Below are positions 265 to 58,697 of a DNA stretch of 64,000 bases, one piece after another. The translations under genes were made by a program, and so were the position numbers. Position 1 is the first letter of the stretch. The number at the start of each line of letters is the position of its first letter. The stretch lies in the IMG/VR virus record IMGVR_UViG_3300020192_000009, positions 34,504-98,503 of that record; one strand, given 5' to 3'. This DNA is from a virus. Under the pieces are notes generated by a model. It saw nothing but the letters and a program-made list of their open reading frames with translations, made no database searches and had not been told where the DNA came from.

Positions 265-975
265 CTACAGCATCGCAAGATTGAGCTTGCGGCGTCTTTT
301 ACGAGAACGCGCCCCTTTGAGAACTGGCCGGTCTGCGACGTAATCCACGTTGTAACCAAGGTCGAGAATCTTCCACTTGCCTTTGGCGTTGCGCCCTAGG
401 TTGGCGGCATGCCAGTCGAAGAACAACAGCTTACGTTCGCGAAACGCATCGCTTGTCTGTTGCACCATGGCCATTAGGCTGAGACAAGAAGACACCGTGT
501 CAGCAACGGGTATGCGCGCAGCTGTCTTCAATGCGCGTACAATTTGCATATCACAACATTGCGCATGTACTTTTACAGCCGGGGTTCTACGGGCGCATTT
601 CAAACCGTCAGAAAGTGTTTCTGAAGCGGCTGTAGGTGTTAGCTTTTCGACGCGCATCGCCCAACGCTCGTCATTGCCTGCAATTTGCAGGGCACTATAC
701 AGTGTCACAACACCGGGGATCCCCTGTGCGCCCATTGTGGTGTGCACGTCACCAGGATCGGTAGTCAACTTAATGACTTTGCCAGCCTCATCAGACTCGT
801 AAACACAGGCATAACTGCCGCAACCGTAACGCTTGGGCTTTGTCATGCGCCGCCCGAACAACTTGACCCACTGGGTGTCTGTCAAGCAAGTTAGGCTGTA
901 CGAGGCTCCCGTGCGTAAGCAGCGGCGGCCAGCGTCATCAATGGTTACGGTGTAGTTTCGCGTGGGAGCGCTCAT
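265..975 (-). CDS. Ser/Thr protein kinase-like protein
   Basis: Gly loop YGCGSYACVY, VIK lysine, catalytic loop DWHAAN, ILDLG; basic C-terminal tail; probable start MSAPTR at 975. Confidence 0.75.
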   Translation of the reverse strand: MSAPTRNYTVTIDDAGRRCLRTGASYSLTCLTDTQWVKLFGRRMTKPKRYGCGSYACVYESDEAGKVIKLTTDPGDVHTTMGAQGIPGVVTLYSALQIAGNDERWAMRVEKLTPTAASETLSDGLKCARRTPAVKVHAQCCDMQIVRALKTAARIPVADTVSSCLSLMAMVQQTSDAFRERKLLFFDWHAANLGRNAKGKWKILDLGYNVDYVADRPVLKGARSRKRRRKLNLAML

Positions 976-1000
976 CAGTAAACCAGTGTACGCCCACGTC

Positions 1001-1264
1001 TTAGGGCTTGTCGAACACGCCTGCCATGCGTGATCTGAATTGCTTGTTGGCTTCCGCCCAGCCCGCGGCCCGGCCTTCGTAGTAGCCCGCATCAAAGTCT
1101 AGGGGAATCGCGCAGGCGATTCGTAGATGATTGCGCAGCCATTCGGTTAACGCGGCTTTACCGCCGCAACGCTCATGGGCCTGGGCAAGCAATTCGTTGG
1201 GCACCCGTAACGCTATCGGTGTGGAATCCCGAACATTGTACAAACCGCCTTTAGGTCGCGCCAT
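1001..1264 (-). CDS. Ribbon-helix-helix-type regulator, divergent from the recombinase
   Basis: PIALRVPNELLAQAHE...LTEWLRNHL beta-helix-helix pattern. Confidence 0.55.
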   Translation of the reverse strand: MARPKGGLYNVRDSTPIALRVPNELLAQAHERCGGKAALTEWLRNHLRIACAIPLDFDAGYYEGRAAGWAEANKQFRSRMAGVFDKP

Positions 1265-2292: not shown

Positions 2293-3046
2293 GCCGCAAA
2301 GGCTGTGCAATGCCTTTCAAAATTGCAACAGCGCGCAGCCTTGCGTGCCAAAGGCTGTGCAATGCCTTACAAATTGCAACTGCGCGTATATCTTCACTGC
2401 GCAACAAAGGCCGTGCAATGCCTTTCAAAATTGCAACTTCGCACGCGCAGTCTGTGCATGGCCGGTGGCAAAGGCTGTGCAATGCCTTACAAAATTGCAA
2501 CCATGGGGAAAGGCCAGCGCGCGATCTGCTGTGTGACAAAGGCCGTGCAATGCCCTACAAAATTGCAACGTGCGCGTGGTGTTGACCGCGCTACCGCAGC
2601 TTATGCTGTAACAAAGGCTGTGCAATGCCTTTCAAAATTGCAACTTGGACCCGCGGGCGTGGCGCCTGCTGGGCCTGTGACAAAGGCTGCGCAATGCCTT
2701 TCAAAATTGCAACGGATCACCAGCTACCTCTACACCAACGGGTGCGCCCGTGACAAAGGCCGTGCAATGCCTTTCAAAATTGCAACGCGAACTGCGTTCG
2801 CGCCTTGGCGCCAAAGAGGATAGCGTGACAAAGGCTGTGCAATGCCTTTCAAAATTGCAACCGGCATACCACGTCGGCCGCCGCCTCCGGTTTAAGGGTG
2901 ACAAAGGCCGTGCAATGCCTTTCAAAATTGCAACGCGCAAGCATAAGCTGCGCCTCTACGGTCAACACTACGTGACAAAGGCCGTGCAATGCCTTACAAA
3001 ATTGCAAGACGAACGGGCAATATCCAATGTCTTTCAAAATTGTAAC
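2293..3046 (+). CRISPR. CRISPR-like array 1: 11 repeats plus a degenerate terminal copy
   Basis: Repeats start at 2293, 2345, 2401, 2465, 2533, 2608, 2677, 2750, 2825, 2898, 2972; spacers 15,20,27,31,38,32,36,38,36,37 nt; hairpin AAAGGC/GCCTTT; 3' end ATTGCAAC. Confidence 0.9.
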
Positions 3047-3058
3047 AAAGACGTAAAC

Positions 3059-3433
3059 ATGCCCACTAAAAAACCCCGCAAACAATGCACACATTGCCCT
3101 TGGCGTGTGGACGTTGACCCCCACGAGATCCCTAATGGGTATTGCCCCACAAAACACGCCGGACTTAAACGCACGATTGCGCAAGACGCGCATCTTATGC
3201 GAGGGTTACATGTTTTCGTATGCCACGAAACCACTAAGCTGCCGTGTGTCGGTTGGTTGCACAATCAACTTGGCGCGGGCAATAACATCACATTGCGTGT
3301 AGCCGTAATTGAAGGCCGAGTTAACGCCAACTACAAAACCGTTGGCGAGCAACATGAAACATTCGAAGACACTTTACCGGAGCCGCAAAATGGACATGGA
3401 CATGACCGAAACACCAACAACAACGACAGCTGA
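3059..3433 (+). CDS. DUF6283-like Cys-rich phage protein
   Basis: KQCTHCPWR...FVCHE...PCVGWL motif; start MPTKK at 3059. Confidence 0.65.
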   Translation: MPTKKPRKQCTHCPWRVDVDPHEIPNGYCPTKHAGLKRTIAQDAHLMRGLHVFVCHETTKLPCVGWLHNQLGAGNNITLRVAVIEGRVNANYKTVGEQHETFEDTLPEPQNGHGHDRNTNNNDS

Positions 3434-10522: not shown

Positions 10523-10706
10523 AACGCAAGATCATCCAAATTACATCGTGTGGCGTACCTAGCGTGCCAGGCTCCTTTAGCGAAATGCTATTCACCCTGT
10601 ATGCACTTTGTGACGATGGCACTGTGTTTCGCCTTTGGGACAACCGTCCAGATAATTGGAAACGTGTGGTGCCCATTCCACAAGACGACACGACGGAGGT
10701 GAAGCC

Positions 10707-11615
10707 ATGACCGCTGCCGAAATAGCGGACATCCTCCACCTGCATGCACTGTGGCGGCATGGGAAGGGCGAGGGATCCCGCGCAGACCTTCACGGCGTAG
10801 ATCTTCGCGGCGTAGATCTTCGCAACGCGGATCTACGCAACGCAGATTTTCGTAGCGCAGATCTACGCAACGCAGACATCAGCCGCGCAAACTTCAGCGG
10901 TGCAAATATCCGCTATGCAGACCTTCGCAATGCAAACCTCAGCTGCATCGATCTCTGCAATGCAAACCTTAGCGGCGCAAACCTCAGCGACGCCGACCTT
11001 AGCGGCGCGTATCTTATCGACGCCGACCTTAGCGCCGCAAGCCTCCGCAACACAGATCTTCGCGGCGCAAACCTCAGCAGCGCGAATTTCAGCGACGCCG
11101 ACCTTAGCGGCGCGTGTCTTATCGACGCCGATCTTAGCGGGGCAAAAACAATGATGGAATCGAAAAGCATCAATGAAATCATTGAGAGCGGTGCCATGTC
11201 GAACGAAATAAACGAATTTGTTGCCCCTCGCTCGAATCGATGGGCGGACTTCGCTTGGCCGCAATGGGTCCCACAAAACGAGCGCAAGCTAATCGCGGAG
11301 CATTACCCAACGGGCGGACCGCGCCAATGGATTGCGTTGGGCAAGCTGGAAGCTCACAGGGTGAAGCCGGAATTGCCGAGTGGTTCGACTGCGACCGCGT
11401 GGGTGTATGACGCGAGTGTCCCTGTACGGGGGCGGCTACTACACCAATGGAACAGCGTTCATGCGGTGATCGTAAATGGCAAAAGCGCCGGGATATTCAG
11501 TCACCTTGCGACAAGCAAGGGCATCGCAGCGCGTAGGCTCGAACTGCAAGACGCGCGCGCGGAAATCGATCTTGAGTTGGCGGCGTTGGACGCGGTGACG
11601 TTATGCTCAATTTAA
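10707..11615 (+). CDS. Pentapeptide-repeat protein fused to an unknown C-terminal domain
   Basis: About 24 A(D/N)LxG/N pentapeptides following the typical 'LHALW..G..G.RADL' lead-in. Confidence 0.9.
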   Translation: MTAAEIADILHLHALWRHGKGEGSRADLHGVDLRGVDLRNADLRNADFRSADLRNADISRANFSGANIRYADLRNANLSCIDLCNANLSGANLSDADLSGAYLIDADLSAASLRNTDLRGANLSSANFSDADLSGACLIDADLSGAKTMMESKSINEIIESGAMSNEINEFVAPRSNRWADFAWPQWVPQNERKLIAEHYPTGGPRQWIALGKLEAHRVKPELPSGSTATAWVYDASVPVRGRLLHQWNSVHAVIVNGKSAGIFSHLATSKGIAARRLELQDARAEIDLELAALDAVTLCSI

Positions 11616-28775: not shown

Positions 28776-29393
28776 CTAGCCGTCGCGGCGCCCGCCACCT
28801 TTAAAAGGTGTATCGTCGCGGTGCCGAAACACACGAGGCGCTTTTTCAACAGGTACACGGGCCCGCGTATCCGCGCCTGCGACGTAAACAGCGCTTACCT
28901 TGTAAGGCCGCACAACAGACGCACCGGCATCGGCAGGGGCGCCGCTTACCGGGGGTTTACGGTCTTCGGCCCAAATATCACGAGCTTTGGACATTTTTGA
29001 GAACTTAGCGCCAGGAGGCGATCCCGCGGTTGGCCGCGCTTTAGACACTTTGCCTTTGCGGGCAGCGCGCGCATTCGCAGCCCGCTTTACTTCACGTCGA
29101 GAGCCCACCGCTGTTTGACTTTCGGCAAGTTCAGCGCGCAATGTCCGACCCGCGACAGCTTGGTTTTCGATGGCCTTCACGGCTTCAACAGGACTGCCGG
29201 TCACCTCAACAAAGCCGAACCCGCGAGAAATCCCGGTTGCGCGTTCACGCATGATTTTGGGGTTGATTGCAACAACCCCCATGGATAACAACGCTGCCAG
29301 CAACGTTCGTTCGTCAAAGGTTTGGGGCACATTGCCAATGAACAGCCGGGCGGGTGGCTGCTGTGCGGGTTTGCGCTGTGGTTTTGGAAGCAT
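28776..29393 (-). CDS. RRM-domain RNA-binding protein
   Basis: RNP2 LFIGNV, RNP1 SRGFGFVE, GRTLRAELA. Confidence 0.85.
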   Translation of the reverse strand: MLPKPQRKPAQQPPARLFIGNVPQTFDERTLLAALLSMGVVAINPKIMRERATGISRGFGFVEVTGSPVEAVKAIENQAVAGRTLRAELAESQTAVGSRREVKRAANARAARKGKVSKARPTAGSPPGAKFSKMSKARDIWAEDRKPPVSGAPADAGASVVRPYKVSAVYVAGADTRARVPVEKAPRVFRHRDDTPFKGGGRRDG

Positions 29394-29563
29394 TGTGTAG
29401 CCTTTGCTAGTGTTCACGTTGCAATTTTAAAGGCATTGCAGAACCTTTTGGCATCGCTACGATCATCGTCAACATTGCAATTTTGTAAGGCATTGCACAG
29501 CCTTTGTCACCCGAAGGCGAGATCGTCGTTGCAATTTCTAAGGCATTGCACAGCCTTTAATAG
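29375..29563 (-). CRISPR. Mini-array 2: three repeats (29418, 29474, 29528) plus a degenerate copy (29375-29410)
   Basis: Reverse-complement repeat GTTGCAATTT..AAGGCATTGCACAGCCTTT; spacers about 7, 20 and 17 nt. Confidence 0.8.
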
Positions 29564-31391: not shown

Positions 31392-31841
31392 CTACTCGCA
31401 TTCTTTGGTTTCGAGACGTAAGCCGACAAGGCCCAGGGCCAGCCGCGGCCTGTTGTATTGCTCATTCGCATATGTACGTTGTTGGATTTGAAAATCAATT
31501 GGTAGCCCTGTCATTTTCGTACCCAGTGCCGAGAACGCCATGCAAAGCGCCGCCCACTTTGCGTTCGTACAAGCGCGCACAGGATCCCCTAGACCCAAAC
31601 GCGCATACTCGGCATCGTCGAGTATTAAGCGCACGTCAACATCGCGCCATTCCTTGAAGAACGTTGCCGACCCCACAAGATACGGCAACGTACCAAATGC
31701 GCTCCACACTTGTGAACCGAATTCTTCCAAATACAATGCGGCGGGCATGCCAACATGATTTTGGCAAATGTACTTTTCAGGTTGCAATTTTAAAGGTATT
31801 GCGCAGCCTTTGTCACGTCGTTTGTCCTGCGGCTTTTTCAT
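31392..31841 (-). CDS. Minimal nucleotidyltransferase-like protein carrying an in-frame repeat copy
   Basis: YLVGSA...WRDVDVR...IDFQIQ (GS, DxD, D). Confidence 0.6.
   Translation of the reverse strand: MKKPQDKRRDKGCAIPLKLQPEKYICQNHVGMPAALYLEEFGSQVWSAFGTLPYLVGSATFFKEWRDVDVRLILDDAEYARLGLGDPVRACTNAKWAALCMAFSALGTKMTGLPIDFQIQQRTYANEQYNRPRLALGLVGLRLETKECE
31781..31816 (-). repeat. Solo copy of the CRISPR-like repeat
   Basis: GTTGCAATTTTAAAGGTATTGCGCAGCCTTTGTCAC, 2 mismatches to the array variants. Confidence 0.9.
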
Positions 31842-42338: not shown

Positions 42339-43019
42339 TCAAAGGCCGGGGAGCGTTGGTGCCGTGTTCCACACAAATGCGTTGCAGTAAAGCTGCAATC
42401 CCCGCATAAAAACGGGTGTGCAATGCGCACGCACACGAGCGTAATATGGCAGCACACGCCGGTCTAGGTTTACCCCTTCCACGGCGCCTCCCACACACGT
42501 AGCGTCCCACGCAATCCTGACTACTTGCTGCATGTCGATGCTGCCAACAGACGTGACAACGGGCATGCGAAACCAAATTTGAAAGTAGTTGGCATATCGA
42601 AGCACTTGGTAAGCCTCTGCCTCTGCGCCAAGGATACGCGAAAAAAGCACCAATATAAAAGCGCGCGCAGCGGTCATACGCGCATACGTGGGATCCGGTG
42701 GAACTGGAAGGGGTGGAAAATGACTGCGCCGTGTCTTAGCGACCTGCACAAGGCCCGCGATACGCACGCCCAAATGTGTGTGGCAAGTGATGCCCCCAAG
42801 TGCATGCATCGCTTTATGCGCCGCCGTTGTGGGCGCTGGGCAATTGAAGCGAACGTAAGTGACATAGTGCCCACCGTAGCAGCGACGCGCTGAACGTCGC
42901 GGACGATACCTACCAAACAACCAAACAACATGTTTGCCTTCAGGATGGAACGCGCAAGCTGCTTCAAACGTTCCGAAACAATGCAATTTTGTGCGTAACC
43001 GCGGCTTTGAAGCTTTCAC
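42339..43019 (-). CDS. C-H-C-C paralog family member 1
   Basis: CAFHPEGKH...FNCP...ALGGITCH. Confidence 0.7.
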   Translation of the reverse strand: MKASKPRLRTKLHCFGTFEAACAFHPEGKHVVWLFGRYRPRRSARRCYGGHYVTYVRFNCPAPTTAAHKAMHALGGITCHTHLGVRIAGLVQVAKTRRSHFPPLPVPPDPTYARMTAARAFILVLFSRILGAEAEAYQVLRYANYFQIWFRMPVVTSVGSIDMQQVVRIAWDATCVGGAVEGVNLDRRVLPYYARVRAHCTPVFMRGLQLYCNAFVWNTAPTLPGL

Positions 43020-43669
43020 GCTTGCCACTGGCGCATCACAACGCGTTTCTCCCGGTTGAACATCGTCTCCCCTTTGTGGTACTGCTGCGTATACCGCAAC
43101 ATCCGCACGAGTTGTAATTGCGGTAAAGGGTAGTTTGTATTCAACCAAGCATAATCCGAAACCGATAATGATTGCACCGGAAGCGCATGCCGCCAATCTG
43201 TGTAGGTTTTGTCACCAATGTGAACGGGCGTTGTCGCAAAGTAGAAAATCGATCCACGCTGACCCTTCCGTTGCAACGTACCTTTAAACGTCAAGCCTTC
43301 ACCACTCCCGCTAACGATATGGAGCGTGAACCGTGATCCATCACGGTGTTTGCCGTTATACTGCGATTGCAAATAGCATTGCAGAAGGTTGAGCAACGAA
43401 TCGTCTTCTGCAAGTTTTCGTGTTGCACGCACTTTGCGAAGTGTCTCCTGGCGCGTGCGCAAATATACGCGAACAGCTGTACGGCAAACTACGGCCCCCA
43501 ACGCTGCAGCCGTACGGCTAGCGGCAGCATTTTCACACATACAATTCCAATCAATAAAACGCACCATAAAATAGGTACTGTTTGTTGGCGTGTAATGTAA
43601 CGTGACCGCATGCGAGGTTGCAGGGAAAGGTGCAAACACGCAAGGAATCTTCAATGCAAGCTGGTTCAT
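43016..43669 (-). CDS. C-H-C-C paralog family member 2
   Basis: CVFAP...H...WNCMC...ALGAVVCR. Confidence 0.75.
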   Translation of the reverse strand: MNQLALKIPCVFAPFPATSHAVTLHYTPTNSTYFMVRFIDWNCMCENAAASRTAAALGAVVCRTAVRVYLRTRQETLRKVRATRKLAEDDSLLNLLQCYLQSQYNGKHRDGSRFTLHIVSGSGEGLTFKGTLQRKGQRGSIFYFATTPVHIGDKTYTDWRHALPVQSLSVSDYAWLNTNYPLPQLQLVRMLRYTQQYHKGETMFNREKRVVMRQWQA

Positions 43670-44286
43670 AAAACTTCCCGATCAAATGCACGTTGTACGT
43701 AGCGCACTAGCAAATCCAAACGCAATTGCCCCAAATCGCAATTGGCGTTTAACCAACGTTCTGCGGTGCCATGCACCCATGGCGTGGACCAATGTGTTGT
43801 TGGGAAATGTTTTGGCAAACAAGGAAACCTTAGCCGAATAGGCAACGTCGCCGTGCCGATGCAAAGATCGATTGCAAGCGCCACGTGTAACACACCGTCA
43901 ATGTACACCGCACGTAGCCACATTTGCAAAGTTGAACCATCGGCATACGTTGTTGCATACCGTTTTTGCAACTGCCGATTTACGAATGCAAGCACACAAT
44001 GCGGACGCGTGGAAGCTACGGTGTCTAAGAGAGTTACACGAACACGCGGTAACCGAATGTGCTGTGCCACAAGCGCGCGACATGTGGCTTTCTGGTTATG
44101 TAACGCATCGACAACACGCGCAGCTTTTGAGGATTCACACGGACAATTCCAAACAATGCGATGCGCGTAACTGCGACGCGAAGCGAACAGTAAATACTGT
44201 AGTTCCACCGAATGCGTACCGAAAACACACTCAAGCTGTAACGGTATTGCCATCCGCTCTATGACAGGATCATGTGGGCGCGGCAT
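43666..44286 (-). CDS. C-H-C-C paralog family member 3
   Basis: CVFGTH...WNCPC...AL....ATCR. Confidence 0.75.
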   Translation of the reverse strand: MPRPHDPVIERMAIPLQLECVFGTHSVELQYLLFASRRSYAHRIVWNCPCESSKAARVVDALHNQKATCRALVAQHIRLPRVRVTLLDTVASTRPHCVLAFVNRQLQKRYATTYADGSTLQMWLRAVYIDGVLHVALAIDLCIGTATLPIRLRFPCLPKHFPTTHWSTPWVHGTAERWLNANCDLGQLRLDLLVRYVQRAFDREVL

Positions 44287-44299
44287 GCAAAGGCCTTTG

Positions 44300-44989
44300 C
44301 TAGGCGTACAACGCCTCGAAGCGTTTGTGGCGGCCTATGCACTTGCTGAGATTTTCAATAGCGTATTGAAAGGTCGTCCATGCATCCAGTGTAACAAAGA
44401 CTGCAGATTCACGGTCTGTTGAGTGCCACCCATAGCTAACACTGTAGCTCCATTCAAGGTATTCGTTAGTTTCCCAAAAAAGACAACCTTGCATCGTGAA
44501 TTCACCAAACAAAGCCCCGTAGTCTCTGCAGCAACGTACCGTTGGCGGCTCGACCACCGTACATGCGGCGGGAAATATACGTTGTTGTATCTGTAGGATG
44601 TACTTACTTGCAGCTTTAAAAAACTCGTGCGACACAGGGTCTTTTAACGGCGCAACACGCTGGTGTGTAGATTTGTCTTTCAAGGCGGCCCGCACAGTTC
44701 TACGACAACATTGCATGCCCCCGAGTGCCATCGCAACGGTAGCTGCCGTATTACTTGTACAAGGACAATTCCAAGTGATAGCGCGGACCAAGTTATCTGA
44801 AATTTGCGCACCCTTCACAATGTGCAACGTAATATCGTGAACTCCATTGGGCGCAAAGTCACAACGGATATCGCTGACAACAACCCTGTCAAAACGGTCT
44901 GTGGTGCGTGTCACGCACCAACGGAAGTCGCTACGTACCATAGGTTTAAGAAGCATCACATGACTCCTGTGCGTAGTAACGCGCGACAT
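44300..44989 (-). CDS. C-H-C-C paralog family member 4
   Basis: CDFAPNGVH...WNCPC...ALGGMQCCR. Confidence 0.75.
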   Translation of the reverse strand: MSRVTTHRSHVMLLKPMVRSDFRWCVTRTTDRFDRVVVSDIRCDFAPNGVHDITLHIVKGAQISDNLVRAITWNCPCTSNTAATVAMALGGMQCCRRTVRAALKDKSTHQRVAPLKDPVSHEFFKAASKYILQIQQRIFPAACTVVEPPTVRCCRDYGALFGEFTMQGCLFWETNEYLEWSYSVSYGWHSTDRESAVFVTLDAWTTFQYAIENLSKCIGRHKRFEALYA

Positions 44990-45596
44990 AGCGCCCTACA
45001 ATTTCAACTTGAGCGTACAACTCGGGGCCCAACAGTGCCTGCGCCAAACTCGTGGATGAGTCTGTGTGCATCGACGCCGCCACCTGTGCCAAACTGAATA
45101 CGGTATAAAATCCATTTACACAATTGTATCTAATTGTCGCGGTCCGAACTATTGGCGGTTCCCACGCCATCCGCGTATCCAAATCAATGCATAAATCACG
45201 ATTGCAAACAGCGCGTGCCAACCGCCATTCCGATGCTGCTGGTCGGTAACGTGCTTCCAGTGCGAACAAACACTGCGAAATAAACGCCGATTTACTGTGC
45301 GCCAACTGTGCCATTCGCACCGCAGCTTGTTGGCGTAACGCGCCTACACGGAGATCCCGGCAAGTGGGCAACCCAAGGGCTGTTAACGTCTCAGCGGCAA
45401 CAGCGCTTGCGCATGAACAATTCCAATTTACAGAACGTATGTAATACGGAAATTCTCGCCCAACTTGGCGCCTAGCGCTGTACGGCACGCTAGTGAAAAA
45501 CACATCGTGATAGCCTTTGGCTGCAAAGGCACAAGCAACGTTGCGAAACACACCCATGTATGGTTTTTTCCCAGCAAAGTGAATTTGGAGATCCAC
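44946..45596 (-). CDS. C-H-C-C paralog family member 5
   Basis: CAFAAKGYH...WNCSC...ALGLPTCR. Confidence 0.75.
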   Translation of the reverse strand: MDLQIHFAGKKPYMGVFRNVACAFAAKGYHDVFFTSVPYSARRQVGREFPYYIRSVNWNCSCASAVAAETLTALGLPTCRDLRVGALRQQAAVRMAQLAHSKSAFISQCLFALEARYRPAASEWRLARAVCNRDLCIDLDTRMAWEPPIVRTATIRYNCVNGFYTVFSLAQVAASMHTDSSTSLAQALLGPELYAQVEIVGRYVARYYAQESCDAS

Positions 45597-45599
45597 AAC

Positions 45600-46247
45600 C
45601 TAACCCCAAGGTGGCGTGGCTGCGTCGTCGTTGTAATAGAGTCGTGCGACAGCGTACGCAACATTGATCTCTGCCATCAATGCGGCGCTCCCACCCACAT
45701 CGGGATGGTGCTTACGCGCAAGTTCATGCATTTTTTCAGTTACACTTGCAAGTCGTACAGGAGGCGACTCAAAGCCTAAAACGACGTACCAAAGCTTAGG
45801 CGCATCGGCGGCGGTCAGCGCCTTGTAACCGGTGTACGCTTGCTCTTGTCGGCCTACTCCATAGCGTTGCTGTGCACGCATCGCTGTTAGGTGCGCAGCC
45901 ACCGCATTAAGGTTGTCTGCAACACGCTTCCAACGATCACAAGGAAACACAACAGACGTGTTTGTAATGCGAAAGTAGATGGCAACGCCCGTGTCACTCG
46001 GCTCGCGTACGCTGCTGTAAGGCAAGCCATCACGCCGCACAGGAATGTTTGTAGACATTACGATTGCAGTTGCCTTGAGCTTGCGCAGTTCATCACGCAA
46101 ACGCTGCAATGCAACCGTGATTGTCAATTCACGACCATGCGTGCTGAAGCGCGCGACTTGCTTACGATGCGCAGGCGTACGGCCTTCCCCCGCAGGCCAT
46201 TGCAAAGGGTACGCGGTGGTGAGTGTTTCTGTATCTTTGTTTTTCAT
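45600..46247 (-). CDS. Phage J-domain protein
   Basis: YPLQWP..RTP N-domain; C-terminal W..VLG...ARKHHPDVGGS. Confidence 0.85.
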   Translation of the reverse strand: MKNKDTETLTTAYPLQWPAGEGRTPAHRKQVARFSTHGRELTITVALQRLRDELRKLKATAIVMSTNIPVRRDGLPYSSVREPSDTGVAIYFRITNTSVVFPCDRWKRVADNLNAVAAHLTAMRAQQRYGVGRQEQAYTGYKALTAADAPKLWYVVLGFESPPVRLASVTEKMHELARKHHPDVGGSAALMAEINVAYAVARLYYNDDAATPPWG

Positions 46248-46489
46248 GAGTACTTGTCCTTAATTTTCTTTTTGCGCACGCTCGCGACAACACTGACGTG
46301 CAATTGCCCAATCCAGGTACACTGCAACCAAAAAACAGGGCAACCAACAGAGACTGAGCAATCCACAAAACAAAATAGTGGGCCCGGCTTCTTTGCGTAC
46401 ACCATTAGTGCCGAATGCCAGCCAGAAGAAACCGATTGCCCATGCCACGTACCAGCCGCCGAGAACCCACCCCAAGGTTGCGAACATAT

Positions 46490-46990
46490 TTAAAGTCTCC
46501 AAGTTTCTGTGCCAGGGGCCTTGTATTGAATCATCCAAGCGGTAGCGACACCAAGCGCGGCCCATGCATCGCTTTTAATGCCGTAGGTAGGGCCGGGATT
46601 CTTTTTGGTGCCTGGCGCTCCCCACAAATCAATCAAGCGTTGTCGAATCACGCTGTCATTGACGCCTTTGGTTTGTTTGCACAAAGCGACTTTGACTTGC
46701 GCGCGCGTAAGCCGTGTGTATAGGTCTTCGCGATTGGTGTCCAGTTGCGTGAATGCGTCGATGAAGCGCCCGATCCAAACACAGGTTTCAAACACCGTGG
46801 CACCGACTGCCATGCCGTAGGATGCAATCATTTCGATTGCCATGTGTGTGGTGGGTCGAGGCAACCGCGCAAGGTTCGCGTGCAACACCTCATTTGGTAG
46901 TTTGCCAAACGCAAGGATCCTGCGCGTTCGTACGTTTACGATTACCCAACCTGATTCGGTAGCGCCGGGATCTACTGCGATTATGTCCAT
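46490..46990 (-). CDS. RuvC-like Holliday junction resolvase
   Basis: IIAVDPG, AIEMIASYG, VFETCVWIGRF, DAWAALGVA. Confidence 0.8.
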   Translation of the reverse strand: MDIIAVDPGATESGWVIVNVRTRRILAFGKLPNEVLHANLARLPRPTTHMAIEMIASYGMAVGATVFETCVWIGRFIDAFTQLDTNREDLYTRLTRAQVKVALCKQTKGVNDSVIRQRLIDLWGAPGTKKNPGPTYGIKSDAWAALGVATAWMIQYKAPGTETWRL

Positions 46991-47053
46991 GTTGATCGTT
47001 ACCCTTTTGCCCTTGAAAATACGTACGCATAAGGCGTTTGCATCATGCGCGCC

Positions 47054-47728
47054 TCACCGCCTCGGAAGCCACCTCGGAAGTACATACGTGTAAGGCGTTT
47101 GCATCATAAGTACATTGGCAACGTCTGCGAAAGCATTAAATGCACGAATAATGCGCGGTAGACACGCTGCCATCTGTAGATCCACAACAGCTAGACCTTC
47201 AATTGTTGCCTGTTGCTTTTCAACACAATTAGCAACGTCCATTCCTGTATCGAGAGTACGCCCCCAAAAACAAAAACACGAAGCATCCGTGCCTAGCCCA
47301 ATACGCAAGCTCATAGTCAAAGCATCCTCCGCCCTTAAGCGCCATGACAGTCTCCTGGCGAAAATCACTGCATGGTCTACAAGGTTCGTTTCCAAAACAC
47401 GGGAAATGTACTTAACCAAAATGCGCTTACGGATTGCGATCAAATCATCAGGCTTTTGACTTTCGTAGCGTTGTCTGCGTAGCGCTATCAACGGGGCGCT
47501 GTCTCGGATATGCTTACGCCATGCCATTCGACAAGTGGCTTGTCCTAGGGCCGCCGCGACAACATGCGCAGCCTCGCTAGTTGCTTTGCAATTCCACTGA
47601 ACTGCGCCCGTGGTCGTCACATACGCAATACTGTGATTACCGCTGTCTGCAAAAGTACATGGAACGTGCAGCGTAAGCCATTGGTCCCGGTAGGTGCACA
47701 TTGATCCGCTTGTGGGTTGGTCGCGCAT
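47054..47728 (-). CDS. C-H-C-C paralog family member 6
   Basis: CTFADSGNH...WNCK...ALGQATCR. Confidence 0.75.
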   Translation of the reverse strand: MRDQPTSGSMCTYRDQWLTLHVPCTFADSGNHSIAYVTTTGAVQWNCKATSEAAHVVAAALGQATCRMAWRKHIRDSAPLIALRRQRYESQKPDDLIAIRKRILVKYISRVLETNLVDHAVIFARRLSWRLRAEDALTMSLRIGLGTDASCFCFWGRTLDTGMDVANCVEKQQATIEGLAVVDLQMAACLPRIIRAFNAFADVANVLMMQTPYTYVLPRWLPRR

Positions 47729-48006
47729 TAGCAGTCTTCTTTTGTAAAAATGGCGTCACTCAACCCCAAATACTTTTGAAATGTAGATCTACAAGTAACG
47801 CCCCCAAGCGCCACTGTTGTTGCATGCGCCACCTCATCGGTCACGGGGCATTGAAAATCCACAACCCCATAGTCAACGCTGAACCTCACAGCGTGCCCGT
47901 AGCCCTCGGAACAAAACCCACATTCAAGACTAGCGGAATTCCATTTAATAGACTCTAAAAGGCCCCACTCCAAGGAGCGTTTTTTGTGCCAGCGCCAAAT
48001 CATCAT
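47728..48006 (-). CDS. C-H-C-C paralog family member 7 (domain only)
   Basis: CGFCSEGYGH...FQCP...ALGGVTCR. Confidence 0.7.
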   Translation of the reverse strand: MMIWRWHKKRSLEWGLLESIKWNSASLECGFCSEGYGHAVRFSVDYGVVDFQCPVTDEVAHATTVALGGVTCRSTFQKYLGLSDAIFTKEDC

Positions 48007-48248
48007 GGTTGCTCCGAATCGTCCAAGCCTGCGTAAGGCCGCCACGTATGACGGCACGTCAATGCGCCTAACGCCATTGCGGTTTCGTGAACGGCATCAT
48101 CCTCCATGGGACAATTCCATTTCACCTGCTTACCGTCAGGGCTGTACTGTACAAGGTGTGAACCTGTGGGCGCGAATGTACACGGTGCTAAGACGCCATA
48201 CCAACCGTCAGTCACAAAGTAACGAGGCACAATGCCTGAAAGGCTCAT
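48003..48248 (-). CDS. C-H-C-C paralog family member 8 (domain only)
   Basis: CTFAPTGSH...WNCP...ALGALTCR. Confidence 0.7.
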   Translation of the reverse strand: MSLSGIVPRYFVTDGWYGVLAPCTFAPTGSHLVQYSPDGKQVKWNCPMEDDAVHETAMALGALTCRHTWRPYAGLDDSEQP

Positions 48249-48901
48249 AGGGTTCCCCCTTGCACTAAGCTCCACACAGTATCGCCGTGGTGTTTCGCAT
48301 TATGAGTTACCAACATCGGTTGCAACATGCCTTCGAGACAAAGCTGTAGCTGTCCCCCACGAGGCACAGCCCAAGGTGAAGCATTCAGGAGGCTAGACAC
48401 TGTTGGGAAAATTTTCCAAACAACTGTTGTGGGCCTTGAGCCCTTTAAAGGCGCAATATGCATTTGCACTTTAAGCTGAAGACCCCAAGCATCGGGGTGT
48501 TTGGCAATCTGTAATTCGACCGGCGCCCAATCAATTTGAATATAGCTGTCAGCGATGCGCGTTAAGGCAGGCAAACACTTAGCGATTGCGTGTTTGCAAT
48601 GCATGCTCAAAATCAGAGATTGCCCATTAACAAGATCGTCAATGTAAGCGTATTGCGCGGCGAGGCGTGCATCTCTAAGCGCGCATGCAGCTGCATTTTT
48701 TTGCATGTAACGCGGCCACCAGTGCCTGCAAGTGAAGTGCCCTAGCGCGTTCATGGTTTTGTGCGCGCTCTCATCTGCGATGGGGCAATTCCATTTGATG
48801 TTGCGCGTGCCAATCGTATGCCGCACATGGTGCGCCACGCCATTCGGTGCGTATGCACATGGAATGATTAGCTTGACGCTTTTGGCACGCGGTTTTTTCA
48901 T
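48245..48901 (-). CDS. C-H-C-C paralog family member 9
   Basis: CAYAPNGVAH...WNCP...ALGHFTCR. Confidence 0.75.
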   Translation of the reverse strand: MKKPRAKSVKLIIPCAYAPNGVAHHVRHTIGTRNIKWNCPIADESAHKTMNALGHFTCRHWWPRYMQKNAAACALRDARLAAQYAYIDDLVNGQSLILSMHCKHAIAKCLPALTRIADSYIQIDWAPVELQIAKHPDAWGLQLKVQMHIAPLKGSRPTTVVWKIFPTVSSLLNASPWAVPRGGQLQLCLEGMLQPMLVTHNAKHHGDTVWSLVQGGTL

Positions 48902-50756: not shown

Positions 50757-50777
50757 GGACGTAGCTGCCCCCTCCCC
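50757..50777 (-). repeat. Core of the left copy of the inverted element flanking the 451-aa gene
   Basis: GGACGTAGCTGCCCCCTCCCC is a 20/21 reverse complement of 52391-52411. Confidence 0.85.
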
Positions 50778-50964
50778 ACACGAAACGAGACGTTTGGTGA
50801 AGCGTAGTAGCGGAAGTGAAATTGTGAACGGTCGTTACCGTAGCGTGTGTATGCGAATTTGCCAATGCTTTTTTAACGTGGCCTAAATGCCACATGTAGT
50901 TACGTGCACGCCACACGACGTAACTTGACGAACACGGGTGTAACGAGCTAAATCGGAAGACCCT

Positions 50965-52320
50965 ATGCAACAACATGTAGAACGAATGAAAAATGATCCG
51001 AAGGTGCAAAACGCTCTACTGAATCAAGCGATTCGGAACGACCGCCGCACCACTCGAAAGCCCACCAGCCGTATCGAGTTGGGCTACCAGGAAGAGATGC
51101 AAACCGCTCGTATTTGGGATCGCGAAATGTCGCGACTTTTGGCGATGCATGCAGCGAATCCGTTTAACGATGCCGATGAACGTGAAATTTGCAGCACTAT
51201 TGAAAAACGTTTGCTGTATGCAAATACGCACTTTGCAAAGTTCACTTGCACTCATGGATTGCCAACCGAACGCTGCGTGTTGTGCGTTCGCGCATTTGTA
51301 GCGCAAGACCATCAGCTGTCATGCGTATCGGCGCACCGGGAGGCAGCAACGCATGCCGACCGCGTAGGCGCTTCCGTTGCGTCCGAGATTGAGCTTGGCG
51401 GCAAAGCCTTCACGCTAGTGGCAACACACGCTGATGATGCGGACGCCACAATCACACAAAACGAATTGTTGGCCTTACGCAAACTCGGTGTAGCGCGCGG
51501 CGTGGACACATGGATCTTGCCAGATAGCACAGTGGTCGCTGTGGTCGTTATTGAGGCTTCTGATGAATTAAATCTTATAGGGATCACATGTAATTCAATT
51601 CGTACGCAACCCTTGAGCGATACCACGCAGCTTCGTCGCTTCTATCGGCAGTACCCTGAATGTTTGAAACGTTTAACAGTGCAACGTTGCATGACTGTGT
51701 TCTTGGAACGCAAACGACGTGCCCGCGAAAAAACTAAAGGCACCAGTGTGAACCAAGCTGCCCGTAACGGTATGGCAGCACATGCAGAAATACTCGCCGC
51801 CTTAGCGCCAGAGTTAAAGCCACGTAAGACACGTACGCCCAACATACGAATGAGGCGCAGCAATGGAATCTTTCGGCAACGTGGCCTGCGTATGGCAATC
51901 GCAAGCACTTGTATCGAACACACAAGCCCGGAGTTAAAACAAGCAGTTGCAACACAAGTTGCGCTTGCACAAGCACTTGAAAGTACGTTTACACGTGAAG
52001 ACGCGATCAGCCTTGAAAGCTGGACACGTAATCATGAATTGAATGTCATGCAGCTTGGCGCTGTAGCTTTGCAGGAAGGCCGTACAGGCACCGCTAACAG
52101 GACGGCAATCTTGCTAGGCGTGCTTCGTGGCCAACGTGCGAAGGCCCACAAGCGCAGCAAGCATGCAATGGGTGCCCGCACCCCCGCCGACAATCATATC
52201 GTGCCCCTGCCCGCGTTTGCGAACCACACATGCAAAACGCACAACGCACCCGTTGTGTTCCTTGGCATTGTGAATATCGGTCGCGACGCCACTAACGTTG
52301 CTGCGCTAAACGCGCTGTAA
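50965..52320 (+). CDS. Candidate compact, divergent TnpB/Cas12-like (type V) effector, possibly nuclease-dead
   Basis: RuvC-I-like GVD181TWILPDSTVVAV; basic helix RAREKTKGTS; RuvC-II-like DAISLE351; IVPLPAFANHTCKTH; RuvC-III-like RD441ATNVAALN; directly upstream of array 3. Confidence 0.5.
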   Translation: MQQHVERMKNDPKVQNALLNQAIRNDRRTTRKPTSRIELGYQEEMQTARIWDREMSRLLAMHAANPFNDADEREICSTIEKRLLYANTHFAKFTCTHGLPTERCVLCVRAFVAQDHQLSCVSAHREAATHADRVGASVASEIELGGKAFTLVATHADDADATITQNELLALRKLGVARGVDTWILPDSTVVAVVVIEASDELNLIGITCNSIRTQPLSDTTQLRRFYRQYPECLKRLTVQRCMTVFLERKRRAREKTKGTSVNQAARNGMAAHAEILAALAPELKPRKTRTPNIRMRRSNGIFRQRGLRMAIASTCIEHTSPELKQAVATQVALAQALESTFTREDAISLESWTRNHELNVMQLGAVALQEGRTGTANRTAILLGVLRGQRAKAHKRSKHAMGARTPADNHIVPLPAFANHTCKTHNAPVVFLGIVNIGRDATNVAALNAL

Positions 52321-52390
52321 CGCCTTTAAATTTACGGTTCACACAACCCTTTCCACCACTACTACCACTTACTCACTTCCGTTCATACCG

Positions 52391-52411
52391 GGGGAGGGGG
52401 GAGCTACGTCC
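52391..52411 (+). repeat. Core of the right copy of the inverted element
   Basis: GGGGAGGGGGGAGCTACGTCC. Confidence 0.85.
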
Positions 52412-52502: not shown

Positions 52503-53147
52503 GTAACAAAGGCTGTGCAATGCCTTTCAAAATTGCAACGCGGGCATCGTGCCAAAGGCTGTGCAATGCCTTTCAAAATTGCAACACAGCCAGCCGCGCG
52601 ACGAGGTTGGCGCGCGCGACAGTGCCAAAGGCTGTGCAATGCCTTACAAATTGCAACATACCGACACAGCGGTATTAGCCGCGCTCATGTCGGCGTGCCA
52701 AAGGCTGTGCAATGCCTTTCAAAATTGCAACCAATACTGGGGCGGGAGCTATCATCGCCAACTCGGGTGTCGCGAAGGCTGTGCAATGCCTTACAAAATT
52801 GCAACAGACGCGAGAAGGCGCACTACATACGGTCGCAAAGGCTGTGCAATGCCTTTCAAAATTGCAATAAGACGCGGCTTTCACCAAAGGCTGTGCAATG
52901 CCTTACAAAATTGCAACTGCTCGATTTGGACGAAGGCTGCGCAATGCCTTTCAAAATTGCAACAAGACGAAAGGCATCGTACCAAAGGCTGTGCAATGCC
53001 TTAGAAATTGCAACTGATTCGCAGCTGCGTTAGTTGCGGCAACAAAGGCTGTGCAATGCCTTTAAAATTGCAACGAATAAAAGGAACGAAAGGCCATGGC
53101 TGGTGCAAATTGCAACAAAGGCTGTGCAATGCCTTTAAAATTGCAAC
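52503..53147 (+). CRISPR. CRISPR-like array 3: 11 repeats
   Basis: Repeats start at 52503, 52549, 52622, 52695, 52769, 52832, 52881, 52927, 52979, 53039, 53112; spacers 9,36,37,37,26,12,9,15,24,37 nt. Confidence 0.9.
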
Positions 53148-53183
53148 ACGCGTACTCGGCACAGTGTCAACAACTTTGGACAG

Positions 53184-53317
53184 AAAAAAAGCGGCCAAAC
53201 TTTCGTCTGGCCGCTTGCAATGGGCGGAGTACACAGTGATCGGGATGCAACTCCCTTAACCTATTAACACATAGAATGCTTCGATGTAGGATATCGAAAC
53301 GGAAGATCCGCTTTGCA
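53184..53317 (-). ncRNA. Candidate tracr/scout-like structured RNA with its own promoter and terminator
   Basis: TTGACG(53352-47)-N17-CAGATT with extended TG; hairpin GGGA-GUUGCA-UCCC; CAUUGCA; terminator GCGGCCA/UGGCCGC-U7. Confidence 0.5.
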
Positions 53318-53430
53318 AAGGTGAATCTGCCAGTTCCTTAACAGCGCGTCAAGTCTTTTGAACGTTAAAACGGTCAAAAAAGAGGGGATACGTGCGTCTT
53401 GTACACGACGCTAGTTTGTGGTTAAGATAC

Positions 53431-53465
53431 CCAAAAGGCCATGTAACGCCTTTCAGAATTGCAAT
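53431..53465 (+). repeat. Degenerate solo repeat in the 5' UTR of 53474-53755
   Basis: AAAGGCCATGTAACGCCTTTCAGAATTGCAAT. Confidence 0.75.
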
Positions 53466-53473
53466 AAATCAGT

Positions 53474-53755
53474 ATGGCCTTAGTTTTACGTTTTCGGTGT
53501 CCTTGTTGTGGCGCATCGCGTGGTGTTCAGCATTACGGGCTTGATCCTTTGGAAAACGGCGAGGTGTACCTTGGCCGTCCTGAACACACAGTAGAGCGCC
53601 TGCTATTCGAGATAGGGGGTCGAGGGAGCGCGCACGTCGTTGAACGTGGGGCCATCAACCTCGAAGCCGCCAGGGCACTTGCCGCATCTGTACGGGATGC
53701 CCTGGCACAACTCGAAAGCGAGATCGCTGAAGCCGTCAACGCTGCAGGCGATTAG
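53474..53755 (+). CDS. Small hypothetical protein (CPCCG)
   Basis: ORF downstream of TTGTAC-N18-TAAGAT. Confidence 0.55.
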   Translation: MALVLRFRCPCCGASRGVQHYGLDPLENGEVYLGRPEHTVERLLFEIGGRGSAHVVERGAINLEAARALAASVRDALAQLESEIAEAVNAAGD

Positions 53756-57568: not shown

Positions 57569-58697
57569 GTTGCAATTTTGAAAGGCATTGCACAGCCTTT
57601 GTCGCTTCGCAGGGAAACTCACAAAACGCAGGAGGTTGCAATTTCTAAGGCATTGCACAGCCTTTGCTACCCACACAACCTGCACCTGTCGTTGCAATTT
57701 GAAAGGCATTGCACAGCCTTTGTCACGCGCTTGCCGTGGTTGCAATTTGTAAGGCATTGCACAGCCTTTGTCACGGGCTAACGCAAATTCGTATTGCATT
57801 GTCGTTGCAATTTTGTAAGGCATTGCACAGCCTTTGTCACGCTTGGAGTGCCGCCAAGAAGCGCCGACATCTCTTCGTTGCAATTTCTAAGGCATTGCAC
57901 AGCCTTTGTCACCTCCATCGCATGTGGCGCTCACTTCGTGTATGTCGTTGCAATTTTGAAAGGCCTTGCACAGCCTTTGTTGCTTCGCAGGGAAGCCCTA
58001 AAAAACGCAGTTGCAATTTCTAAGGCATTGCACAGCCTTTGTCACGCGCTTGCTAGGTGGAGTGGCTGCACTGGTGTTGCAATTTTGAAAGGCATTGCAC
58101 AGCCTTTGTCACTCTTCAGTTGTTGCAATTTGTAAGGCATTGCACAGCCTTTGTCGCCGACTATTCCCCGCGCTCAATAAATGATGCAGTACTTTGGTTG
58201 CAATTTTGAAAGGCATTGCACAGCCTTTGTCGCATCGAGCACCTTCAAACGTTGCAATTTTGTAAGGCATTGCACAGCCTTTGTCGCTTCGCAGGGAAGC
58301 CCTAGAAAACGCAGTTGCAATTTCTAAGGCATTGCACAGCCTTTGTCACAAGCGTTGCAATTTTAAAGGCATTGCACAGTCTTTGTCGCAGCCTTGCACG
58401 AGCTTGTCTTCGGTTGCAATTTTGTAAGGCATTGCACAGCCTTTGTCACTGCTTGTCGTGGTTGCAATTTTGAAAGGCATTGCACAGCCTTTGTCACCCG
58501 CTGAGCCCGCGCGAGTAGCGTCTGCTCATGGCGTTGCAATTTCTAAGGCATTGCACAGCCTTTGCTAGAAGAGATCGGCGGCTTCAGGTTGCAATTTTAA
58601 AGGCATTGCACAGCCTTTGCTAGATCACATTTTCCCATCCCGCCATTCGTTGCGACGATGTGTTGCAATTTTAAAGGCATTGCACAGCCTTTGCTAG
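57569..58697 (-). CRISPR. CRISPR-like array 4: 19 repeats
   Basis: Reverse-complement repeats from 57569 to 58662; spacers in + order 29,20,12,29,36,34,26,30,9,39,17,26,4,23,11,35,19,38 nt. Confidence 0.9.

Follow-up and report, generated by a model that had tools for sequence, protein, structure and literature searches.

Why should a repeat that stands mostly in long arrays carry the signature of a gene start? The question arises in a 64,000-nt stretch of phage DNA (the window), which corresponds to positions 34504-98503 of the 98.5-kb IMG/VR phage contig IMGVR_UViG_3300020192_000009 (~88% complete by estimate). A 37-nt repeat found there contains a Shine-Dalgarno (SD)-like motif and an ATG, and an earlier interpretation of the letters without database searches (the sequence-only reading) had taken the repeats to be exapted translation-initiation modules. 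The reading that we favour, with a probability of about 0.5, is that the arrays are effector-less and CRISPR-derived, and that terminal or solo remnants of them were opportunistically captured as stop-SD-start junctions.

The phage under study is labelled G000; G002 and G003 are related phages, and L-numbers denote metagenome contigs of related strains, apart from L147, which belongs to G002. At its left end the phage contig shares 69 nt at 100% identity with contig L044, which together with L031 lengthens the genome by ~14 kb (overlap and repeat copies at L044:2594-2660 and L044:8665-8733). The recovered sequence, comprising the 98.5-kb contig and L031/L044, amounts to 112 kb, and the whole genome is roughly 110 kb.

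The Repeat and Its Arrays

The census was performed on the whole 98.5-kb contig using nhmmer with a seed hidden Markov model built from exact copies (E < 1e-3). It returned 51 copies of the 37-nt repeat, 46 of them inside the window, where positions 2825-2861 hold a typical one. With two copies in L044, which lie outside the contig, the total is at least 53, distributed over seven loci. The arrays and single copies were as follows:

Just left of the window, minus strand: array 0, found in the census.
2293-3008, plus strand: array 1, 11 copies with spacers of 15-38 nt, between a tyrosine recombinase gene (1488-2204) and a DUF6283 gene (nhmmer and regular expression).
3025-3046, plus strand: half-copy from the 3' side of the repeat, degenerate, CAATGTCTTTCAAAATTGTAAC, closing array 1 towards the gene (nhmmer E 0.0067, model positions 15-36).
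29418-29563, minus strand: mini-array of 3 copies upstream of an RRM gene (nhmmer E 8e-9 to 1e-13), kept in L022 with one spacer replaced.
31780-31816, minus strand: solo copy in which ATG has become ATA (nhmmer E 8e-10).
52503-53148, plus strand: array 2, 11 copies downstream of a 451-aa open reading frame (ORF), with spacers mostly different in the relative L024.
53429-53465, plus strand: weak copy, 9 nt upstream of ORF 53474-53755 (nhmmer E 1e-4).
57569-58697, minus strand: array 3, 19 copies with spacers of 4-39 nt and a CTAGC 5' variant in the three gene-proximal copies.
L044: the seventh locus, a pair of abutting copies upstream of a gene for a lipoprotein, the second copy short of 6 nt at its beginning.

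More than 90% of the copies lie in arrays, away from gene starts. The repeats are near-identical and their length falls within the 23-55 nt of CRISPR repeats. The spacers are mostly unique (one occurs in three variants) and are not of the uniform length expected of CRISPR, ranging from 4 to 39 nt with a modal class of 36-39 nt in 14 of 43. Scans for sigma-70 promoters and for terminators showed the repeats to be neither. The Rfam scan of the window at gathering thresholds and a permissive scan of array 1 identified no family, and no CRISPR direct repeat or ToxI match.

Two further observations concern the surroundings of the copies. With translation from the TAATG-coupled start at 31841, the minus-strand ORF 31392-31841 would include the solo copy at 31780-31816 in frame (…DKGCAIPLKLQ…); the alternative start, ATGCCC at 31748, lies 33 nt behind the copy. 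Directly to the right of array 2, a strong intrinsic terminator with a 12-bp stem is present for minus-strand transcripts (53189-53216), and array 2 is therefore predicted to be shielded from antisense read-through.

Relation to the Array of a Sister Phage

The evidence for a CRISPR ancestry comes mainly from G002 (IMGVR_UViG_3300050821_013777), a 121-kb phage that matches 27 predicted genes of the study phage in largely the same order, including the PD-(D/E)XK and SNF2 genes that border the array region. A few kb beyond its SNF2 gene, in the same neighbourhood as arrays 2 and 3 of the study phage, G002 carries a regular array of eight 36-nt repeats and seven unique 36-40-nt spacers. The last repeat overlaps the 3' end of the gene for a 602-aa protein (array and nuclease, 116101-118448, equal to L147:16101-18448). 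This protein matched NF040570 guided_TnpB with 199.6 bits (cut-off 100), PF07282 (Cas12f1-like TNB), OrfB_IS605, HTH_OrfB_IS605 and the TnpB structure 8h1j in the PDB (E 3e-23).

The repeats of the two phages, only ~55% identical, could be aligned with 20 matches, in one orientation only, and none of 2000 shuffles was as good. Common to both are a 5' GTGAC and a 3' AT-Y-GC-M-AC. The Un1Cas12f1 scaffold has AATGCAAC immediately before the guide, and the 3' octamer of the repeat, ATTGCAAC, differs from it by one base. The G002 repeat is unstructured and has neither an ATG nor an SD in the homologous orientation, so that a translation-like motif does not characterise this lineage of repeats. Together, these features suggest that the 37-nt unit is a CRISPR-type direct repeat, related to the one that abuts the TnpB-family (type V-like) nuclease in G002.

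When the degenerate pattern common to the two repeats was searched for in IMG/VR, only G002 was found to carry it as an array, and no anti-repeat was identified near the arrays of G000 or G002. The repeat itself was present in strain-level relatives from metagenomes. No close relatives of the 451-aa, RRM or DNA polymerase proteins were found in IMG/VR. As an observation in its own right, the G002 locus may represent a compact type V-like system that is carried by a phage and lacks adaptation genes.

Turnover of the Arrays Among Strains

DNA near-identical to that of the phage is present in a dozen microbial-mat metagenomes and several freshwater ones. Among strains that are 93-98% identical, the repeats are identical while the spacer units have been shuffled, replaced, duplicated or deleted. 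Two independent contigs, L018 and L035, also contain array 1, with units in another order or exchanged for others, and contigs from four metagenomes skip whole array-1 units. One array-1 spacer is also present in array 0 of L018, and L036 has an expanded array 3 with a duplicated multi-unit block. The variable TT(TC/AC/AG/TA)AAA(A) segment of the repeat switches allele in 98.5%-identical strains, with the flanking spacers unchanged. No strand-changing joints were found among the metagenome contigs, which thus provide no evidence of inversion between inverted arrays.

The tyrosine recombinase beside array 1 belongs to a family of 60-odd homologs (40-69% identical), three of which are encoded by ~100-kb IMG/VR phages. 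These three integrase-related phages have no copy of this repeat and no array beside the recombinase. It was this recombinase family that led to G002 and its array.

The pattern is consistent with a spread of the repeat to at least seven irregular arrays, all in sense orientation and none with an effector; these would turn over by unit-level recombination and would be kept homogeneous either by recombination or by some selective use. If so, the lineage context may outweigh the ribosome-binding motif in interest, the array of one phage being regular and linked to a nuclease, those of another proliferated, irregular and effector-less. The lineage would then offer a natural series for the fate of type V-like arrays after loss of the nuclease or in other use, such as decoys or regulation.

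Evidence Against a CRISPR Origin and the Search for an Effector

Several results weigh against the favoured reading. Of the 43 spacers, 29 fall short of 36 nt, the shortest having 4 nt, and spacer order is shuffled, unlike in Cas1-Cas2 arrays. A six-frame search of the 98.5-kb contig with PF07282 and the G002 nuclease found no TnpB/Cas12-like ORF (genome ~88% complete), and L031/L044, which extend it by 14 kb, gave no tblastn match to the G002 nuclease. The spacers of arrays 1 and 3 had no protospacer in 50,697 INPHARED phage genomes; metagenomes were not searched. In G002, the homologous orientation of the repeat is antisense to the neighbouring genes, and the adjacency of TnpB and array there could be coincidental. 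At the DUF6283 gene, one of the proposed captured starts (ATG 3059), the copy has lost the GG of its putative SD (AAAGAC), and an SD-type exaptation is doubtful at that gene. Finally, the repeats are co-oriented with the upstream gene at all seven loci (p 0.016), an orientation that CRISPR arrays do not need and that hints at a role inside mRNAs.

Virus-borne type V and TnpB-derived arrays, including cas-less orphan arrays and mini-arrays, resemble those described here in the 37-nt repeat and in modal spacer length (36-39 nt, against 36-40 nt in G002). The alignment with the TnpB-abutting G002 repeat and the likeness of the 3' octamer to that of Un1Cas12f1 are further points in common. Unlike such systems, the present arrays have spacers of which two thirds are shorter (4-35 nt), occupy seven loci, are shuffled in order between strains and run in the sense direction within operons; neither an effector nor adaptation genes nor protospacers came to light. 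The arrays are classified as CRISPR-derived and not as a CRISPR-Cas system, because uniform spacers and an effector, both defining features, were looked for and not found. No spacer matches were present outside the arrays in the phage itself, or in three related phages.

The 451-aa protein encoded upstream of array 2 had been put forward as an effector whose binding could gate translation. No support for this was obtained: the protein is an ORFan without a link to TnpB/Cas12 or to RNA-binding proteins by Pfam, NCBIfam, PHROG, hhalign or fold. An exhaustive search identified two real remote homologs (P0090, P0091), giving a three-member family, and no domains. There was no match in Pfam, PHROG or NCBIfam, tblastn against INPHARED phage genomes was empty, and a word-indexed search matched only the protein itself. 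The hhalign comparison with the G002 TnpB gave a probability of 0.04, the PDB profile search was empty and the Atlas gave no usable match. The AF2 model had a pLDDT of 38 from the single sequence and 55 with three sequences, and Foldseek returned a generic ferredoxin-like domain at best. The ORF lies within an insertion sequence (IS)-like unit:

50757-52411, plus strand: IS-like unit of 1,655 bp, holding the 451-aa ORFan (50965-52320) between 21-nt inverted repeats (95% complementary).

The 21-nt repeats occur in the genome only as these two copies, and an inner 16-nt inverted pair is also present. From its sequence, the unit looks like an insertion element of an undescribed family. As another candidate for an effector, the 733-aa protein encoded between arrays 2 and 3 was considered and rejected, being a low-complexity coiled coil with no PDB or family match.

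The SD-ATG Motif and RNA Structure of the Repeat

The ATG is retained at repeat positions 18-20 in 48 of the 51 copies, and A[AG]AG[GA]C-N6-ATG fits 45 of them, so that the claim that every repeat has AAAGGC-N6-ATG was slightly overstated. The same geometry had been noted at ordinary gene starts, and both examples were confirmed (GAAAGGC-TAAATC-ATG at 8126; TAAGGC-TTGTCA-ATG from 13195, with the ATG at 13201). Upstream of ORF starts, AAGG is enriched 2.7-fold and AGGA 6-fold, and an AAGG SD core precedes 23 of 135 genes. Outside the arrays, AAAGGC-N6-ATG occurs five times against 0.7 expected, and three of the five occurrences are gene starts.

An SD-like motif and an ATG within a single 37-mer is, by rough estimate, a ~5% chance event, and the 51-fold recurrence of the motif is descent from one sequence, not independent evidence. 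The minor-allele counts at the ATG (0, 1, 1) and at AAGG (0, 0, 0, 1) show the same conservation as the rest of the core; a 19-nt core and the 3' octamer are nearly invariant across copies. The AAGG-N7-ATG motif may be a by-product of the repeat sequence, masked in intact units by the AAAGGC/GCCTTT pairing and possibly by TGCAAT/ATTGCA.

Intact units are predicted to fold into the AAAGGC/GCCTTT hairpin (-6.8 to -7.9 kcal/mol), and the second perfect 6-bp pairing, TGCAAT/ATTGCA, interleaves with this stem in an H-type pseudoknot topology. None of the 20 inner stem positions is polymorphic, as against 13 of the 17 others (Fisher 7e-7), and common variation occurs only in the 5' tail, loop 1 and loop 3. 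The stems show no compensatory changes, and single stem mutations are mostly disruptive; for want of compensatory changes, the invariance shows a constraint on four hexamers and is not proof of the fold. As AAGG and AUG are paired in either predicted fold, intact units would be expected to initiate poorly. In the gene-start copies described below, the hairpin had been said to be weakened, and the predicted energies of 0, -3.3 and -4.9 kcal/mol agree with this.

These data bear on the alternative that survives best, although we consider it unlikely: the repeat could be a cis-acting mRNA element, a hairpin or H-type pseudoknot hiding the SD and AUG, bound by a phage or host factor such as the RRM protein. 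The gene-start copies would then be regulated, and the long arrays would act as decoys, as CsrB does for CsrA. The co-orientation with transcription at all seven loci, the two interleaved stems with variation limited to the loops and 5' tail, and the position of SD and AUG within these stems would all fit, and the RRM gene lies directly behind the mini-array with its start in a decayed copy. However, the hairpin is no more stable than in shuffled sequences (z about -0.5), and the stem mutations are mostly disruptive and uncompensated. The gene-start copies keep the 5' half only and would be invisible to a structure-specific binder, the related G002 repeat is unstructured, and the arrays are missing from the three related phages and are thus not a conserved regulatory system.

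Comparison with Repeat-Based RNA Decoys and Phage Cassettes

Somewhat less likely again is a role of the arrays as RNA decoys, aimed at an RNA-guided nuclease that the host or competing phages encode, either as a Racr-like mimic or, by analogy, as a pseudo-ToxI-like one, with the spacers as irrelevant filler of irregular length. Racrs, or solitary repeat units, are CRISPR-repeat-like viral RNAs that are solitary or form mini-arrays and match the host repeat; type V-A Racrs have been validated (Camara-Wilpert et al. 2023, PMC10651486). The arrays share with them CRISPR-repeat-like units in a virus without cas genes, where spacer content would be irrelevant. A CRISPR-type repeat in many copies with no effector of its own would suit a decoy, and the sister phage does have a TnpB-family nuclease with a related repeat. 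No cognate repeat was found in the collections searched, though: the 19-nt core is absent from IMG/VR and gave three single chance matches in 185,579 GTDB species genomes. The present repeat, moreover, is too distant from that of G002 to mimic it towards that particular effector. Racrs are also solitary units or mini-arrays, and not arrays of 11-19 copies amounting to at least 53 in one phage.

Two other kinds of repeat were compared. ToxI and pseudo-ToxI repeats are reportedly tandem, pseudoknot-forming units of 36-37 nt, and phages are known to carry such repeats as decoys. The present repeats are likewise tandem, of similar length, possibly pseudoknotted and upstream of a gene. ToxI units, however, abut without spacers and precede a ToxN-type endoribonuclease, whereas spacers are present here and the downstream genes encode DUF6283, RRM and other proteins; neither a ToxN/AbiQ-type gene nor an Rfam ToxI match was found, so that the arrays do not qualify as a type III toxin-antitoxin system. 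The PeSL cassettes of T4-type phages reportedly combine an early promoter with a stem-loop and promote the shuffling of small ORFs. They resemble the present repeat as short repeated stem-loop units at gene boundaries, and an 84-aa ORF does lie between two copies of array 0. Unlike this repeat, PeSLs form no long arrays and carry a promoter, and no sigma-70-like promoter is present in the repeat.

Gene Starts in Probable Repeat Remnants

Under the favoured reading of effector-less, CRISPR-derived arrays, remnants would be capturable because arrays end directly before genes. A remnant that has lost the 3' arms and retains only positions 1-22 of the repeat, with AAGG, the ATG and in some cases a stop codon at 2-4, would expose a stop-SD-start junction, and the genes would have borrowed their starts from the repeat. 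The captured starts would be those of the RRM gene, of paralog 3 in a tandem gene family and, probably, of the DUF6283 gene:

28776-29393, minus strand: RRM-domain gene, 205 aa from ATG 29393 (Pfam RRM_1 E 3e-6; Atlas neighbours all with RRM_1).
29375-29410, minus strand: decayed copy at the RRM start, with CTAGCAAAGGC at 29410-29400 followed by N6-ATG (weak nhmmer match at 29383-29408).
43666-44286, minus strand: paralog 3 gene, 206 aa, a member of the tandem family.
44282-44303, minus strand: solo 5' half-copy, CTAGCAAAGGC-CTTTGC-ATGCC, whose ATG (44286) starts paralog 3 (direct reading).
3059-3433, plus strand: DUF6283 gene, 124 aa, starting MPTKKPRKQC (Pfam PF19800 E 8e-12, residue 7 aligned to profile position 4).
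3042-3077, plus strand: putative decayed copy with the DUF6283 ATG (3059), GTAACAAAG-N8-ATGCC (16/34 when register-locked; fold energy 0 kcal/mol).

For a register test, every ATG of the genome was locked into the repeat register and its identity to the repeat was scored over 34 positions. The three proposed starts scored 16, 16 and 17, and only 1.5% of the 3,068 non-array ATGs reached 16. Gene starts in general were ~3-fold enriched among the high-scoring ATGs (6 against 2 expected, p 0.02).

The RRM and paralog 3 starts, which had both been proposed to lie in repeat copies, were confirmed at the level of sequence. Each ATG is in register and preceded, at the spacing of the repeat, by the exact 11-mer CTAGCAAAGGC, which is the 5' variant of the first three array-3 copies. 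The chance expectation of CTAGCAAAGGC-N6-ATGCC in the genome is 5e-5. The RRM-start remnant sits right after the 3-copy mini-array, where the next unit would be expected, and keeps some matches in its 3' half. An exact 13-mer, CACTAGCAAAGGC, is common to this remnant and to the first array-3 copy with its 5' flank, and the 92%-identical strain L022 reads ATGCC at the RRM start, as the repeat does. In the paralog-3 half-copy, the TAG at 44302-44300 is the stop codon of the upstream gene. The upstream regions of 12 neighbouring ORFs were compared, and the other members of the tandem family have no repeat-like leader. This family, encoded at 42339-48901 (minus strand), consists of tandem small paralogs with a common Cys/His-containing N-terminal module and variable tails.

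The DUF6283 start, also proposed to coincide with the ATG of a repeat copy, is the weakest of the three. The GTAACAAAG-N8-ATGCC arrangement is present and 3042-3077 is invariant in L018, L023 and other metagenome contigs; nhmmer, however, reports no repeat match there even at E <= 10, and the GTAAC of this copy doubles as the 3' end of the preceding half-copy (3025-3046). By Pfam alignment, 3059 is the right start of the gene. The N-terminus, MPTKKPRK, is 5 residues longer than that of the G003 ortholog (MSRRQC) and unrelated to it, and the ortholog has a different leader as well; such a lineage-specific N-terminus would fit a 5' end that was borrowed. Where a gene follows an intact copy, its start lies 9-25 nt downstream and has a signal of its own, for example GGGAG before the L044 lipoprotein gene. 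Separately, arrays 1 and 0, which are divergent, are each followed by a first gene (window 3059; G000:C1:33206, minus strand, 1.3 kb left of the window) that begins ATGCCCAC(T/C)AAA (MPTK), and the two proteins are otherwise unrelated.

The nearest precedent for a repeat with an SD core at gene starts is provided by the start-associated sequences (SAS) of Cluster K mycobacteriophages, which are 13 bp long and conserved across subclusters, with 11-19 copies that almost without exception sit at gene starts (Pope et al. 2011, PMC3203893). Both are phage-specific, asymmetric, one-orientation repeats with an SD core a few bases from an ATG, sometimes including the upstream stop codon. Unlike SAS, the present repeat is 37 nt long and includes the ATG itself, stands mostly in arrays away from gene starts and involves 2-4 genes: two clear and one or two doubtful starts were counted among more than 53 copies, where SAS would be expected at many. 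Nor is it conserved at orthologous genes in related phages, the three integrase-related ones having no copy.

It is improbable that the gene-start similarities are ordinary stop-SD-ATG junctions that share AAGG spacing and are not repeat remnants. AAGG is a common SD core here, gene starts are enriched among high-scoring ATGs in general, and the 3059 case rests largely on the overlap with the preceding copy; but exact matches of 11-13 nt (CTAGCAAAGGC, CACTAGCAAAGGC) at 29410 and 44303 exceed what an SD needs, and the RRM copy keeps 3'-half matches at the position expected of the next unit.

The proposal that the repeats were exapted as translation-initiation modules therefore held in part. Truncated 5' halves do lie on the predicted RRM and paralog 3 starts and plausibly on that of DUF6283, with the spacing kept and the hairpin lost. 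Initiation is not the apparent purpose of the repeat, given the location of most copies, the unexceptional conservation of ATG and AAGG, and a G002 repeat that has neither ATG nor SD. If these ATGs are used in vivo, remnants of CRISPR-type repeats would be recyclable as ready-made stop-SD-start junctions, a small but concrete route to a de novo translation start, and gene callers would need caution near arrays. A far-reaching extension is that the repeat acts as a genome-wide stop-SD-start cassette switched by RNA structure or by a repeat-binding factor, in which intact copies would be closed, truncated or bound copies open, and long arrays would titrate the factor; this would amount to a repeat-based translational regulon as well as a route to starts for new ORFs, and we hold it to be quite unlikely.

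Coding Potential of the Arrays

The repeat's ATG had been read as opening peptides of the types MP(F/Y)KIAT and MPxKLQ. These readings are correct and not universal, as seven copies stop right after MP (ATG-CCT-TAG), and in two others the ATG is replaced by ATA and by AGG, respectively. The proposed micropeptide library was rejected. The ORFs that open at the repeat's ATG span anything from 2 to more than 127 codons, seemingly at random, and a variable segment that makes the unit either 36 or 37 nt long shifts the reading frame. The codon log-odds per codon were -0.125 for spacers in the ATG frame, compared with +0.199 for genes in frame and -0.324 off frame. Stop codons in the spacers numbered 4/318 in the ATG frame against 11/321 and 9/333 in the other two, a difference that is not significant. 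The copy at 2898 has its ATG in the reading frame of the DUF6283 gene in the window, but in strain L023 one extra nucleotide separates the two, and there is therefore no conserved N-terminal extension of the DUF6283 protein. Judged by codon usage and frame, the array ORFs are non-coding.

Least probable of all, then, is that the repeats are dedicated translation-initiation modules with arrays translated as a micropeptide library or gated by an effector: an SD-like AAGG does lie 7 nt upstream of a sense-strand ATG in 45-48 of the 51 copies, with the same geometry at ordinary genes and slightly fewer spacer stops in the ATG frame, but codon bias is lacking, ORF lengths look random, SD and AUG are paired in the predicted folds of intact copies, the ATG is not specially conserved, the sister repeat has none, and the proposed effector has no supporting feature.

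Other Features of the Window

The HIP1 motif is absent from the phage and thus gave no hint of a cyanobacterial host. In a freshwater strain (L035, run X13), 718 bp at window 283-1002, most of ORF 265-1095, are missing and 130 other letters stand in their place. The genes of the window include those for a family A DNA polymerase, a Dda-like helicase, a PD-(D/E)XK nuclease, an SNF2 helicase, ThyX and the small tyrosine recombinase. At 10656-11615 (plus strand) a pentapeptide-repeat protein is encoded, and its coding DNA is periodic at 15 nt.

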